Shown piece after piece: positions 23,701 through 29,700 of a DNA stretch of 64,000 nt. This stretch comes from Aplysia californica (lineage: Eukaryota). The position numbers and the translations under genes were made by a program. The stretch's first letter is position 1. Each line of letters begins with the position of its first letter. Location: positions 322,102 to 386,101 of the forward strand of contig NW_004797808.1 of the NCBI RefSeq assembly GCF_000002075.1, given 5' to 3'. A model generated the notes under the pieces. It saw only the letters and a list, made by a program, of their open reading frames with translations. It had not been told where the DNA came from and did no database searches.

Positions 23701-26700
23701 TTTCATTGGTGTGTGTATATTTGTTTGGTTATAGAGAAAACTCTCCTTGTGTCTTAAAGAAACTGAAGAATGGTCCAAAAACTTAACCTTCAGTTTTCTC
23801 AAAACATTTTTTGGGATATACCACTTGTGCTTAAGATCGACCAATTAATCCCTTCAATGCCGCAGGTAAATAGGCCCCTGTGCCGCAGGAAATCCCATGA
23901 ACCAAGGCTGCTCAGGGTGACACCCCTCTTAACCTCCCATAACTTTTTTATTTATGAATATTTTTCATGAATTTCTGCATATACATTCTACATTTAACCA
24001 CATTTCTTTTGATATACTTTTGTAGGGAATTGTAACATGATGCCCAAAACACCACCAAATAACATAAACAACACATTCGAGTAATGATAAACTGGGGCCA
24101 AAAAAGGGGAAATGCATGTTGTTTGAGTGTTTGCAGGTAAAGAGGAAGTGACGCTTTTCCTACCTTATACAACACTCGTACAATCCATATATATATACAC
24201 ACACACATGTAAGCCCATCTGGGTTTATGACATATGGCGAGCAAAGAGTGGTTAATCTTGATGGCCTATCACAGTGCATAGTGGCATGAAACATGCCATT
24301 TTCACTTATTATCCTATCGTGAGTCTCAAGATCAACGCTTATCCAGTTGCCCCTCCCCTTTACCTGTCGGAAATTTATAACTTTCCATTTCTGACCGAGG
24401 TCCGCTCCAGCCTTTGTCGTTACACACCATTACTTTGTGATTAAAATTCAGTCTGTCTTGCAAATTTGGGAGTAGAGACAACTGCTGCAATGGTCATTTC
24501 GATGTGATCCCGCCTGGAGCGAACATGTAGGCCCTACCCACCCAGCGTGTGATGTAAGTTTAGGTTGAGAGCTCAGGTGTGAGTGGGATGCGTGGGGAAA
24601 ACAAACCTGTCTGTCAGTTCACACCCCGGTGCTATCTCGTCTGGGGCAAACATTGTATCGCTTCATCGATTTTTACGATTGTGATCACATTTACTATAGT
24701 GGCTGAGCTTTGACGCGACGGACGGTGGGGAGAAAGTTTCTAGTAAAGCTGATGTTTTTGCAAATCAAAGAATATTAAGTTGTACAGCTTTGAGCAATTG
24801 GAAGACCAATTGGTAGGGATAATAACTATATTATAGGCATTGTCTACTGGTTTAAATTCTAAAAGACTTGATTGCATGATTGACCTACTTTTGGTATTAC
24901 TATAAATGGTAACATAGGAAGTGTAGGGCTTTTTTCTTTGAGTTATCTGGTAAGAAATCTCTGAGACCTAGAGTCACTACTGAATCTATCCACTGATACA
25001 TTAGTGCTAAGCGTCTCAGACATTGAATCGTCAGTCCTATGCGCCAATTCATCTTAATAATAGATGGGTTGGTCACCTTTCGTACTGGCACATATTCATC
25101 TTATGCAAGTGAATTGTGAGGTGAAATTTGTCGTACCACAATTAAAGCTTTAGATCTAGCTGCATTGCAGTAAGGAAGTTGTCAGGGGACTGTACCCTAG
25201 CGTTGCTTAGATTTACTCGTGGACTTTGCAGTACTCCCGTGTTCCGCACTAGGGGACTGCAAAGAAACAACCTTTGAACTTTGTGTCGTGGTCAACAAGC
25301 CATCATCAACATTTACATCCCATAGTAGTAATTCTGGTTCTATGTTACGTCGACACCTTTTTGAGCGAAACTTTAAATATTTTTTTTCCCTGACATATGA
25401 AAAAACGGCTTGGGTTTGGGGTAAAAATATGAGAAAATTAGTAAAGGTAGCTGTTGGGGTTGGCAAGTCTGTGCTAGGCCTAAGTAGGTGGTCTTGTTGT
25501 TGTTGCTGCCGATCAGAGAATTATAATAGATGGCTAACCCTTTGACTGGTTGGTAATATTAGTCTTTCCAGTGTAATGTGTTTTAAACTGAACACTGAAG
25601 ATTTGAAAATTGAGAATTTTGGCCTGAGTATATCATGTGTATCGGTATCGGTAAATGTATTCAAGGGTACTACTTAAAGTAGAATCCTGGATTCTTCAAA
25701 TCAAAAAGTATTTTTCAAATCTTTGAAAACAGTATTGAAAAGGATTGATGTTATTTTTATAGACTAAAATCTAAAAATGTCATCTCGATTGGAATCAGCC
25801 TTTTCCTGTTCAGAGCGTTTTGTCATAAAACATTAGTAACAGTGAGAAAAAAGTCAATAATGCTTGGATTAGGGTGTGATGTGCTAAGAGGATGCACATT
25901 CAAGATTTATTACAACAAACATCTCAAACTGTCTTAACAGTCCCCCTGTGCGGAATGCTAGGGGACTGCACAGACGCCGAGTAGATCTAAGCAGCGCTAG
26001 TCCCCTTACAACTTCCTTGCATTAATTTGTGCTTCATTTATAATTGTGCTGGTTTTTGCACAGTCTGAAAATTGCTCAAAGCTTATATAACTGAACATTC
26101 TTTGATATTTTTTTTTTTAGGGGGGGGGGGATCAGCTTTCTAGTTTGAGCAATTTAAGACCAGTTAGTAGGGATGATAACTATATTAAAGACATTAAACC
26201 TACTGGTTATTGTTCCAAATGAATAAAAATTCTCACACTTATTTAGACTTAATAGCATGGTAGACCTACTTTTGGTATTACTATAAATGGAAACCTAGGA
26301 AGTAAACTTTTTTTGATGTGATAGTTTTCTGATAAGAAACCACTGAGACCTAGAGTCACTACTGAATCTATCCATTGATACATTAGTGCTAAGCGTCTCA
26401 AACATTGAATCGTCAGTCCTATGCGCCAATTCATCTTAATAATAGATGGGTTGGTCACCTTTCGTACTGGCACATAATCATCTTAAGCTAGTGAATTTCG
26501 AAGTGGAATTTGTCATACCACTAGTAATGCTTTAGATCTTGCAGCATTGCATTAATTAGTGCTTCATTAATAATTGTGCAGGTTTTAGCAGTCTGAAAAT
26601 TGCTCAAACCTGGACTACTGAACATTCTTTGATTCACAAAAAAAAATCAGCTATACTGATTTGCACAAAAAACCCTTGCTAGAAAGCTTTTTTTTTTTTT

Positions 26701-29700
26701 TTTTGCAAATCAAAGAATGTTCTGCTGTACAGGTTTGAGCAATTGAAGACCAAATGATAAGGATGATAACTATATTAAAAGCATTACCTACAGGTTAACA
26801 TTCCAAATGAATTCAAATTCTCACATTTATTTTGGTATAACTATAAATTGGAAACATGTGAAGTGAACATTTTTTTCTTTGTCAGTTTTCTAATAAAAAA
26901 TCTCTGAGACCTAGAGTCACTACTGAATCTATCTATTGATACATTAGTGCTAAGCGTCTCAAACATATCGAATCGTCAGTCCTATGTGCCAATTCATCTT
27001 AATAATAGATGGGTTGGTCACCTTTCATGCTGGCACAAATTCATCTTATGCAATTGAATTTTGAGGTGAAATTTGTTGTACCACATGTAAAGCTTTAGAT
27101 CTTACTGCATTGCATTAATTAGTGCTTCATTTATAATTGTGCTTGTTTTTGCAGATTCTGAAGATTGCTTAAACCTGTACAACTGAACATTCTTGGATTT
27201 GCATAAAAATCTGATTTATTGATTTGCAAAAAAAATCAGCTTTACGGTAAAGTTTTTTTTTTGTTAATCAAAGAATGTTTGGTTGTACAGGTTTGGCTTT
27301 ACGGGAAAGTTTTTTTTTTTGGTTAATCAAAGAATGTTTGGTTGTACAGGTTTGAGCAATGTAAGACCAATTGGTAGTGGTGATGACAATATTAAAGGCA
27401 TTTAACCAATTGGTTAATTTTCCAAATGAATTTAAATTCTCACATTTATTTTGGCATTACTATAAATCTAAACATGAAATAAACATTTTTTTCTTTGACA
27501 GTTTTCTGATCAAAAGATAAAGATCTCTGAGACCTAGAGTCACTACTGAATCTATCCTTTGATACATTAGTGCTAAGCGTCTCAAACATCAAATCGTCAG
27601 TCCTATGCGCCAATTCATCTAAATAATAGATGGGTTGGTCACCTTTCATACTGGCACATTATCATCTTCTGCAAGTAAATTTCAAGGTGAAATTTATGTT
27701 ACCACAAGTAATGCTTTAGATCTTGTGGCATTGCATTAATTAGTGCTTTATTTATAATTGTGCTGTTTTTTGCAGATTCTGAAGATTGCTTAAACCTGTA
27801 CAACTGAACATTCTTGGATTTGCATCAAAATCTGATTGATTTGCAAAAAAATCAGCTCTATGAGAAAGTCTTTTTTTGTTAATCAAAGAATGTCCGGTTG
27901 TACAGGTTTGAGCAATGTAAGACCAATTGGTAGTGGTGATGACAATATTAAAGGCATTTAACCGATTGGTTAATGTTCCAAATGAATTCAAATTCTCACA
28001 TTTATTTTGGTATGACTATAAATTGGAAACATGTGAAGTAAACATTTTTCTCTTTGACAGTTTTCTAATAAAAAATCTCTGAGACCTAGAGTCACTACTG
28101 AATCTATCTATTGATACATTAGTGCTAAGCGTCTCAAACATCGAATCGTCAGTCCTATGCGCCAATTCATCTTAATAATAGATGGGTTGGTCACCTTTCA
28201 CACTGGCACATATTCATCTTATGCAATTGAATTTTGAGGTGAAATTTGTCGTACCACATGTAAAGCTTTAGATCTTTCTGCATTGCATTAAGTGCTTCAT
28301 TTATAATTGTGCTTGTTTTTGCAGAGTCTGAAAAGGAGTCGGAGTCTTCGGAGGAAGAAGCTGAAGCTCCAAGTGATACGGAGCCAAAAGAGGATGGAAA
28401 CGATGAGCAAAAGATGGATGAGAAACAGGAAGACATGGGGTTGGAGTTCCTTGTCAAGAAAGAAAATGCGCAGCCTAAGGTAAGTTGAGCTTGACCTTAA
28501 TTTTTTTTTTTCTTTTTCTGATTGATTGATTTGTTGTTTTCATGAATTGCTATTGAGGATGATATTTTGATTTTTTTAAATTTATGGATTGCCCAGTTTG
28601 GAAATTTTTGCCCTGAGAATTTTGTGTACTAAATACATAGCTGTGTTGGTTACCATCAAATTACAAGGTAGGATTGGGTACAGTTGTTCCTTTTTCATAC
28701 CTTTTCTTAGCAATGTTCTACTTTGTCTCTGACCAATTTACGTTCTTTCTTTTTCTAGGGTGATGAGTCCAGTACAGAAGGGCCTGGAAAGGAGTTCAAT
28801 GATATTGCAGCTGCTGCCCAGAGCTTACAGCCGAAAGGATATACTCTGGAGACCACTGAGGTAGTGACACTGAATATATTTGAGGAGTCCACAGAAAAAA
28901 CATGCATAGTCTCAGACTGAAAATCGTGAGGGTATCAATTTTTAACACTTGTTGACTCATAACTGTATTTCTGTTCAGCTCTTGATTGATTATTGTTGTT
29001 AGATTTTCCCATCAAACAAATATGAAGTTATAAGTCCACAAGCTCTTAAAATCCTGGCACCCTCACATTTTCCAGTTTTTGACTAAGCCTGTTTTTTTTC
29101 AGTGGACTCATTTGTTAATTCTCACTTTCTGAGCTTTTGGTATTTTGACCTCAAGGTTAAATGGAGACCTTCTTTAGCGTAACTTTTTTTGTGTGTGTGA
29201 ACTGCTGCACTTTGGTTTTGAGTATGATATAACACAAGGTGTCTTGTTTTCAGCATATAACCTGCACTTTTTAGAAAGCTGCCTTGAAATACTTGTTAAA
29301 CTTTCGTTAGTGGGTTTTAGAATCTGATGGCATCTTTTGAAAAAAAAATTATGCATTTTGACTCTGCTGTTCATGTTTTCAGTTATCTTTTGCCCATGAG
29401 ACCTTCATAGTTATTTGTTTTCGCTGTTGCTGTATGTTTTTTTGTTTTTGTTATTATGGATGTACGGGTTATGTCATTATACTCATTGTTTTTGTTTTCA
29501 TCAATAGGTGAAGACCAAAGTGCCTTTCCTGTTGAAGCATACACTAAGAGAGTACCAGCACGTTGGCTTGGACTGGCTTGCCACAATGCATGATAAAAGA
29601 CTCAATGGGATCCTTGCTGATGAAATGGGTCTCGGCAAGACCATCCAGACCATTGCCATGTTGGCTCATCTTGCATGTGACAAAGGTTTGCCAAATTTTA

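Follow-up and report, generated by a model that had tools for sequence, protein, structure and literature searches.

Intron 23559-28324 of a domino/SRCAP orthologue, carried on the + strand of a 64,000-nt stretch of Aplysia californica contig NW_004797808.1 (the window, meaning the whole stretch that was analysed), contains five tandem repeat units, each with an H/ACA-like small nucleolar RNA (snoRNA), and the duplicated unit includes the 3' splice site of the intron itself. The four extra acceptors, called decoys J1 to J4 below, are in our reading passengers of the tandemly amplified snoRNA, probably unused and skipped by the spliceosome. The units lie within 24752-28333; each begins at the equivalent of about 24752, takes in the snoRNA and the acceptor, and ends 8-10 nt into the exon. 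They are 4-20% divergent, with unit-specific indels. The duplicated acceptors are not chance matches, because they belong to families of direct repeats with five copies each (271 nt long; 64-89% identical to the reference copy in ungapped comparison). The sequence-only reading had placed an identical copy of the true acceptor (28325) at 27154, another copy at 27775 and decayed ones near 26063 and 26591, and its coordinates proved right, with 0, 3, 2 and 4 differences in 33 nt, respectively.

The read data used here are three raw poly(A) RNA runs from one study (584, 539, and 515 reads placed) and run X5, which consists of contigs, probably of DNA, from study P2 (not P1), these being the 4 runs listed of 24; bridging of a junction by X5 requires 31 letters per side, and genome-wide copy estimates come from contig depth in this single run. 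The host features and the decoys are as follows.

23436..23558, + strand: upstream coding exon, donor CAG/GTATGT, phase 1
23559..28324, + strand: host intron, 4,766 nt, with the snoRNA array and several transposon-like inserts
28292..28324, + strand: true 3' splice site (intron end 28324, exon start 28325)
28325..28479, + strand: true downstream exon, donor AAG/GTAAGT; purines make up 73% of the first 100 nt; covered by sense reads (at 28350) in all three RNA runs
26029..26063, + strand: decoy J1, 2/33 differences; the original AG is now AC (CAC, ends 26061), with a new CAG 2 nt on that ends at 26063; TGA at 26066
26559..26591, + strand: decoy J2, 4/33 differences; decayed, its tract carrying three T>A changes; scores 0.1 (true site, 6.3); TGA at 26594
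27122..27154, + strand: decoy J3, 0/33 differences from the true acceptor; TGA at 27184
27743..27775, + strand: decoy J4, 3/33 differences; TGA at 27805

An 84-residue ATPase exon of the host gene shares 99% identity with a protein of Candidula unifasciata, which is by identity the nearest named match among the 120 listed of 4,770 and points to a gastropod. Exons within 22416-30963 form an open frame once joined, and the alignment to the Candidula domino protein runs through the 23558-28325 junction; homology, with the 5' end of the gene incomplete, covers about 12 exons up to and including the 28325 exon, which the sequence-only reading had numbered 15. Each decoy had been said to lie about 110 nt past a snoRNA, except in unit 1 with its intervening miniature inverted-repeat transposable element (MITE), and the measured distances from snoRNA 3' end to AG agree: 114 nt for copies 2-4, 111 nt at the true site, and 968 nt in unit 1. 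Donor-like CAG/GTTTG sites follow the decoys at 26732, 27290, 27349, and 27905, delimiting would-be exons of 141 nt at J2 (26592-26732) and 136 nt at J3 (27155-27290). The latter was predicted to contain an in-frame TGA, which is found at 27184, and an in-frame premature stop follows all four decoys.

The snoRNA copies and the insertion in unit 1 are arranged as follows.

24959..25095, + strand: H/ACA-like snoRNA copy 1 (ceN100/SNORA3-like)
25172..26018, no strand: MITE-like element bounded by long terminal inverted repeats, inserted between snoRNA 1 and J1; X5 depth 430-870 against about 47
26341..26477, + strand: snoRNA copy 2
26902..27040, + strand: snoRNA copy 3, with a 2-nt hinge insertion
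27525..27661, + strand: snoRNA copy 4, the sole copy of the five with a canonical ANANNA hinge box
28077..28213, + strand: snoRNA copy 5

The 135-nt snoRNA core has a hairpin-hinge-hairpin-tail form with a consensus fold of -39.7 kcal/mol; 39 consensus pairs are kept in all five copies, none of them with a double-sided change, and an ACA box lies after the second hairpin, 3 nt from the predicted 3' end, in 5/5 copies. The hinge H box reads ANANNA in one copy and ANANNG in the other four. The units had been said to carry SNORA3, a name that did not hold up: SNORA3/SNORA45 (RF00334) reached 19.4 bits (E 0.082) against a threshold of 51 in a 201-nt search of copy 5, and ceN100 (RF01607) scored better, with 27.0-36.6 bits in 5/5 copies over the full model, short of its gathering threshold of 80, and E = 1.1e-05 in the short (201-nt) search of copy 5. 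At gathering level, Rfam gave 0 matches across the 64-kb window. The letters of the 5' hairpin pocket equal those of the SNORA3 and ceN100 consensus, and from this match we infer the putative pseudouridylation target of the pocket. By sequence and predicted fold the array elements thus resemble H/ACA guides of the ceN100/SNORA3 kind, of which they are not members by score; the chicken counterparts, ACA3, are described as hosted in RPL27A and as guiding 28S sites (PMC2653536). A lone hairpin-hinge-hairpin-ACA-like sequence with the 5' pocket motif was also seen at positions 1971-2090 of contig L002, which is AT-rich and probably animal; it matched neither an Rfam H/ACA family nor domino.

Comparison among the units points to selection on the snoRNA cores, whose conservation exceeds that of the spacers, while decoy tracts and hairpin arms appear to drift like spacer. 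The cores have 11/131 variable columns (mean p 0.038), compared with 17/62 (mean p 0.132) and 59/139 (0.195) in the two spacers (p=0.002 and 0.007). With unit 5 as reference, the divergence of the decoy tracts is not distinguishable from that of the adjoining spacer (4/33 vs 10/62, p=0.76; 3/33 vs 10/62, p=0.53; 0/33 vs 1/62, p=1), and conservation above neutral intron, as expected of a poison exon, was not found among the paralogous units, at low power. The units are mosaics: unit 3 resembles unit 5 in its 3' half (12, 3, 4, 0, 1, 3, 2, and 0 differences by 60-column block) and unit 4 resembles unit 5 in its 5' part (1, 2, 9, 4, 1, 7, 10, and 3 differences). The perfect state of J3 is best explained by recent exchange with unit 5, since the units are mosaic and the adjoining spacer also differs at only 1/62 positions. 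A directional decay of the decoys, in which T changes to purines at J1/J2 (4/4 vs 18/27 in spacers, P ~0.2), was considered and rejected as evidence, one of the changes being shared with J4 and maybe ancestral.

Past each decoy AG the order is the same: 8-10 nt of exon, a reverse-complement copy that reads from 24800 to 24733, and a return to the + strand near 24752. The resulting foldbacks, made of an inverted arm A' and a direct arm A, and their template are listed here, with predicted fold stability as z.

24733..24800, + strand: segment A, start of unit 1 and template of the inverted arm; X5 depth 47.1, single-copy
26071..26153, + strand: inverted arm A' of J1, followed by a truncated unit 2 A arm; no long hairpin is left (z -1.1)
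26598..26744, + strand: J2 foldback A'/A, 41/47 Watson-Crick pairs, z -6.9; donor-like CAG/GTTTGA at 26732
27164..27360, + strand: J3 foldback, z -9.2; A arm tandemly duplicated (59 nt); donor-like sites at 27290 and 27349
27785..27916, + strand: J4 foldback, z -7.1; donor-like site at 27905

The foldback is best read, from the layout of the sequence, as the scar of the founding duplication, a small inverted triplication. The template 24733-24800 is inverted at 4/4 junctions (the long stem being gone at J1), and copy number follows a 2-3(inverted)-2 pattern. The stretch 24733-24752 is present in forward (+) orientation in unit 1 alone and inverted in the junctions; correspondingly, the starts of units 2-5 contain nothing on the + strand that matches 24725-24756 well. 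The far end of the inverted arm lies at 24733-24768 in J2/J3/J4 and at 24740-24753 in J1, and the near end is at about 24800 in all. A GTCT..AA micro-match is found at the exon breakpoint in J1 and J2, with a T run at the return point, the junctions having since diverged. All junctions share the same exon-side breakpoint, which argues for one founding event. One replication template switch would have made the founding junction, giving both the duplicated acceptor and the foldback, and unequal crossing-over and gene conversion would then have amplified and mixed the units; a DUP/IN/DUP arrangement of this kind has been attributed to template switching, and long inverted repeats are described as prone to loss (PMC13334657). 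Neighbouring arms pair no better than distant ones across J2-J4 (31/35 vs 30-31/35; duplexes of -50 to -52 locally and -52 to -54 when enclosing), and the arms therefore show no co-evolution. No further copy of the foldback arms was found elsewhere in the window. A 59-nt tandem duplication of the A arm spans 27236-27354 in unit 4, creating two donor-like sites and alternative stems. The idea of the foldback as a MITE was rejected: arm-bin depth in X5 is 33-76 (47.1 on the contig over A), compared with 430-357,000 for true repeats.

The probable non-use of the decoys is best understood from the surroundings of the true site. We built splice-site matrices from the 26 acceptors and 27 donors of the same gene and scored control introns, which possibly include a few unannotated exons. 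The true acceptor scores 6.3 and ranks 9th of the 252 AGs in its own intron, and AGs as good occur at 2.6 per kb of control introns (49 in 18,945 nt). The decoys score 6.3 (J3), 5.1 (J4), 7.6 (J1, for the regained CAG), and 0.1 (J2), against 0.9-12.5 for real sites (n=26). The decoy donors are weak, with intron-side scores of 1.9-3.3 (real donors, 1.7-8.3; n=27), and the first 100 nt past the true AG have a purine fraction of 0.73 with 13 GAR triplets, compared with 0.49-0.51 and 2-4 GAR triplets past the decoys. For the acceptor tract, the true site has a predicted probability of 0.34 of being unpaired and the decoys have 0.36-0.45; for the donor-like sites the value is 0.00 at 26732, 27349, and 27905 and 0.37 at 27290. 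In these predictions, the hairpin buries the weak donor and not the acceptor. Exon definition is described as prevailing above intron lengths of 200-250 nt (PMC9225289), a rule that by analogy would extend to a mollusc. In a 4.8-kb intron the exon would accordingly be chosen by exon definition: the body of the true exon is rich in purines and GAR triplets and ends at a consensus donor 155 nt from the acceptor. A decoy is followed by an A/U-rich hairpin instead, its sole nearby donor is weak and predicted paired, and it would be skipped. Leaky use of a decoy would lead to an early TGA and to removal by nonsense-mediated decay (NMD), and the decoys would therefore be cheap to keep. Selection would maintain the snoRNA copies, as the dose of one pseudouridylation guide, rather than the decoys, and the snoRNAs may be freed from one shared lariat, like those of invertebrate intronic H/ACA clusters.

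The RNA pattern fits decoy silence weakly. The poly(A) runs look like 3'-tag libraries, with loose poly(A) ends at 23217; the 22574-23144 intron joint is covered by 34, 30, and 16 reads and the true exon at 28350 by 15, 5, and 10 sense reads in the three runs. Bins 27126-27379 and 27634-27887, which cover the pseudo-exons of J3 and J4, have a sense depth of 0 in 3/3 runs, at low depth and with no NMD block. Bin 26364-26617 has sense depths of 0.36, 1.33, and 0, and its reads are taken as unspliced intron or snoRNA 2 and not as decoy splicing, because there is hardly any depth in the next bin (0, 0.11, and 0).

A second intron of the same gene, 39270-42642, holds another array.

39465..42465 (39465-39612, 40030-40742, 42135-42465), + strand: an H/ACA-like element unrelated to the first, in seven copies (layout: hairpin, hinge, hairpin, ACA)

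No sensible Rfam family was found for this element (8 weak matches), and this array contains no copy of the acceptor of intron 39270-42642, the best match being 18/31. It serves as an internal control, and the gene therefore tolerates many snoRNA copies per intron without decoys. Its spacers are short, with weak folds (-4.6 to -8.3 kcal/mol). Upstream of several copies stands a pyrimidine run with an AG scoring in the manner of an acceptor (40195, 40386, 42105, and 42291); these sites are not copies of the intron's acceptor. Copy 6 has an 8-nt deletion, with GCA replacing ACA. The last base of the H box is A in 1/7 copies and G in 6/7. The two arrays, unrelated as they are, share a hinge motif, ACAT(T/C)G, in which the H box has G in place of its final A; it is present in 10/12 copies, one of them with a 2-nt insertion (about 25020, 26402, 26963, 27586, and 28138, and 39539-42389); the G-ending H box may be a lineage variant.

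Several points weigh against silent passengers. The scores of J3, J4, and J1 are in the range of real acceptors, and intron definition is described as preferring the upstream acceptor, by an intron-proximity rule (PMC9225289). Downstream TACAG/GTTTG had been likened to donors that the gene really uses, and indeed the real donors at 29685 and 42812 both begin with GTTTG. The decoy conservation test is low-powered, with 33 nt and four related copies, and a search of metagenomes for the orthologous locus, which would have sharpened it, gave 0 hits to an exact 25-mer; a degenerate hairpin motif gave 2 hits there, neither with a domino or H/ACA family match. G.U to A.C mismatches in the stems stand at 4:0 in J3 and 3:1 in J4, where the acceptor is intact, and at 0:3 in J2, where it is decayed, the J1 stem being lost; this bias hints at selection on a sense-strand hairpin, from few and shared events. 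The RNA test is weak, resting on one study with a 3'-tag look and no NMD block: the canonical joint 23558-28325 and the decoy joints are all absent among the 15 of 31 joints listed, and a -50 kcal/mol hairpin could hinder reverse transcription.

Among the rival explanations, we consider it unlikely that the foldback, after a passenger origin, was later kept by selection as a silencer that pairs the donor-like site and the pseudo-exon and so blocks poison-exon definition at intact decoys. The unpaired probability of 0.00 at 27349, at 27905, and at the J2 site favors such a role, as do the mismatches biased to G.U at J3/J4 and to A.C at the decayed J2 and the persistence of three of the four long inverted repeats, although such repeats tend to be lost (PMC13334657); however, the arms diverge at spacer-like rates and match their neighbors no better than remote arms do, J1 lacks a long stem yet has a CAG that scores well, the acceptor tract is unmasked, and the site at 27290 is partly open (0.37). 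The sequence-only reading had held that the decoys must be silenced, perhaps by the foldback; normal non-use is indeed likely, but the foldback does not mask the acceptor (0.36-0.45 vs 0.34 unpaired). Nor is a special silencer required, equally good AGs occurring at 2.6 per kb in control introns and the decoys lacking a purine-rich body, and the foldback would have an ordinary mutational origin, its arms showing no co-evolution. Functional poison exons are a doubtful alternative: acceptor, 130-141 nt, and GTTTG donor would be included, each snoRNA would leave in a lariat of about 420-490 nt, and the mRNA would go to NMD, uncoupling snoRNA output from Domino protein. The exon-sized spacing, the early TGA at J2-J4, and the donor G in units 3-5, with its matching base in the opposite arm, speak for them, and there are described precedents for NMD-coupled splicing in snoRNA hosts (PMC4233238) and for a repeated exon-intron-snoRNA unit (PMC3413130). 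Against them, the donors are predicted to be paired and score low (1.9 and 3.3, where 27 real donors span 1.7-8.3), the J2 tract is decayed, excess conservation is lacking, sense depth is zero in the J3 and J4 bins of three runs (a weak observation), and the second array does without such sites. The earlier proposal of poison exons that give each snoRNA its own lariat thus found no support: excess conservation is missing, neither intact pseudo-exon has sense reads (a weak observation), and the second array has no acceptor copies.

Two further routes to separate snoRNAs appear very improbable. In ratchet (zero-exon) splicing, the TACAG/GTTTG sites at 26732, 27290/27349, and 27905 would act as both acceptor and donor, and stepwise removal would free snoRNAs 3-5 in separate lariats with no exon and no NMD. 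These AG/GT sites score 3.1-6.4 as acceptors, inside the real range, and fungal juxtaposed snoRNA introns are described as removed stepwise (PMC3596301); against this, the motif is predicted to lie within the stem, the regenerated donor is weak (1.9-3.3), units 1 and 2 lack the motif, the copies descend from one event, and 9 equally good sites in 18,945 nt of control intron place such AG/GT sites within chance expectation. Rnt1p cuts yeast snoRNA polycistrons apart, and the 46-bp stems between the Aplysia snoRNAs might similarly be cut by an RNase III (Drosha-type) enzyme, which we rate just as far-fetched as the ratchet. Each neighbouring pair among copies 2 to 5 is indeed separated by one long stem (z -6.9 to -9.2), and two snoRNAs per intron would otherwise leave a snoRNA-ended long RNA (PMC11028025), but J1 has no long stem, the second array has short spacers with weak folds (-4.6 to -8.3 kcal/mol), and the arms drift neutrally. 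A composite of these ideas is also unlikely: an acceptor-hairpin-donor-snoRNA cassette, made by one template switch, would be used at a low or regulated level as a poison-exon chain or hairpin-gated AG/GT ratchet, giving each H/ACA copy its own lariat and trading snoRNA yield against Domino mRNA.

Least credible of all is that the array is an assembly artefact. Assembly easily goes wrong in tandem arrays, none of the contigs listed crosses this one in full, J3 is missing among the 8 of 5,120 X5 pieces listed, and a third X5 contig extends just 21 letters beyond J4 on its 3' side. X5 contigs bridge J1 (25907-26372, depth 39.7) and J2 (26447-26829, depth 37.7), where the unique flanks have 44.7-46.7, and an artefact is unlikely because of this bridging at near single-copy depth together with the unit-specific indels and the 4-20% divergence. 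Unit 5 (28033-28211) has an X5 contig depth of about 69 vs 45-47 for unique sequence, and one contig there has unit-3-type letters; an extra unit, a conversion allele, or a collapse of similar units are possible reasons.

Elsewhere in the gene, an 80-nt coding exon at 21862-21941 is required for the frame between 20295 and 22416, with weak support from a Lottia protein. A 674-codon exon at 50891-52912 is followed by further exons, at 59100-63760, whose match to the Candidula protein resumes once most of the 674-codon exon is passed over, and these are likely alternative 3' isoforms of domino; an 856-N gap lies at about 59493-60348. The domino introns also hold very-high-copy repeats at 23658-23848, 24078-24676, and 28904-29157 (X5 depth 15,000-357,000), the first of which is transcribed from both strands in the poly(A) runs. 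A transposon-like element is present in two 1.4-kb copies, 88% identical (675-2034 and 45308-46654), and a short-repeat family occurs at 5031-5468, 18362-18628, 30477-30778, 44106-44601, and 57925-58074.

Drosophila domino and human SRCAP/EP400 are presumably snoRNA hosts as well, which our literature search did not confirm. The literature searched (few subscription papers) gave no example of duplicated acceptors accompanying snoRNAs arrayed in a coding intron, and no mollusc case; snoRNA cis-duplication, pseudo-acceptors, and inverted triplications are each known, and their combination in a coding intron was not found there. As read here, the Aplysia locus is a natural record of the birth of an intronic snoRNA cluster by one template switch followed by unequal exchange, in which a perfect copy of a real acceptor is tolerated 1.2 kb upstream of the true site in an essential gene. 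It offers a natural test, in a mollusc, of exon definition versus acceptor proximity, and the two arrays of one gene (five copies with decoys, seven without) permit a comparison of how several H/ACA RNAs leave one intron. If the decoys are used, the locus would illustrate a route from a duplication scar to one-snoRNA-per-lariat processing coupled to NMD; if the composite cassette is real, a SNORD115/116-like or fungal complex-intron-like architecture would have arisen de novo in an animal protein-coding intron.

Animals are described as having mostly one snoRNA per intron, two in one intron being able to yield snoRNA-ended long RNAs (PMC11028025), and in Drosophila intronic H/ACA clusters are known (PMC3089462), while another study describes a Drosophila cluster with a single gene per intron (PMC1821038); cis-duplication of snoRNAs is also documented (PMC2653536). 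The Aplysia array resembles such cis-duplication and Drosophila-type clusters in having tandem paralogues of one guide in one host, several per intron, with cores kept and spacers drifting (PMC2653536, PMC3089462, PMC11028025); unlike those clusters as described, it has a copied unit that extends past the 3' splice site into exon sequence and an inverted junction. Like DUP-TRP/INV-DUP (duplication-triplication/inversion-duplication) rearrangements, it has an inverted middle copy between direct duplications, a putative short breakpoint micro-match, and a capacity to form hairpins (PMC13334657), but it is germline, old (arms 10-15% diverged), and amplified to five units, and its flanks are asymmetric (about 20 nt and about 500 nt) with about 50 nt triplicated. 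Its unit of snoRNA, acceptor, exon-sized stretch, and donor-like site recalls the SNORD115/SNORD116 and Bsr arrays (PMC3413130), and its serial acceptors behind one donor, with a snoRNA ahead of each, recall fungal complex introns (PMC3596301). The SNORD115/116 and Bsr arrays, however, have non-coding hosts, C/D guides, and truly spliced exons, and the fungal introns, as described, arose by exon loss in non-coding hosts, their splicing established by expressed sequence tags and reverse transcription-PCR, whereas the Aplysia units arose by duplication in an essential coding gene and carry putative splice sites. Finally, the elements share with SNORA3/SNORA45 and Caenorhabditis elegans ceN100 the two-hairpin fold, the ACA 3 nt from the end, and the 5' pocket letters, and differ from SNORA3/ceN100 in falling below both gathering scores, in a hinge box that ends in G in 4/5 copies, in a 3' hairpin that is little alike, and in having domino as host.

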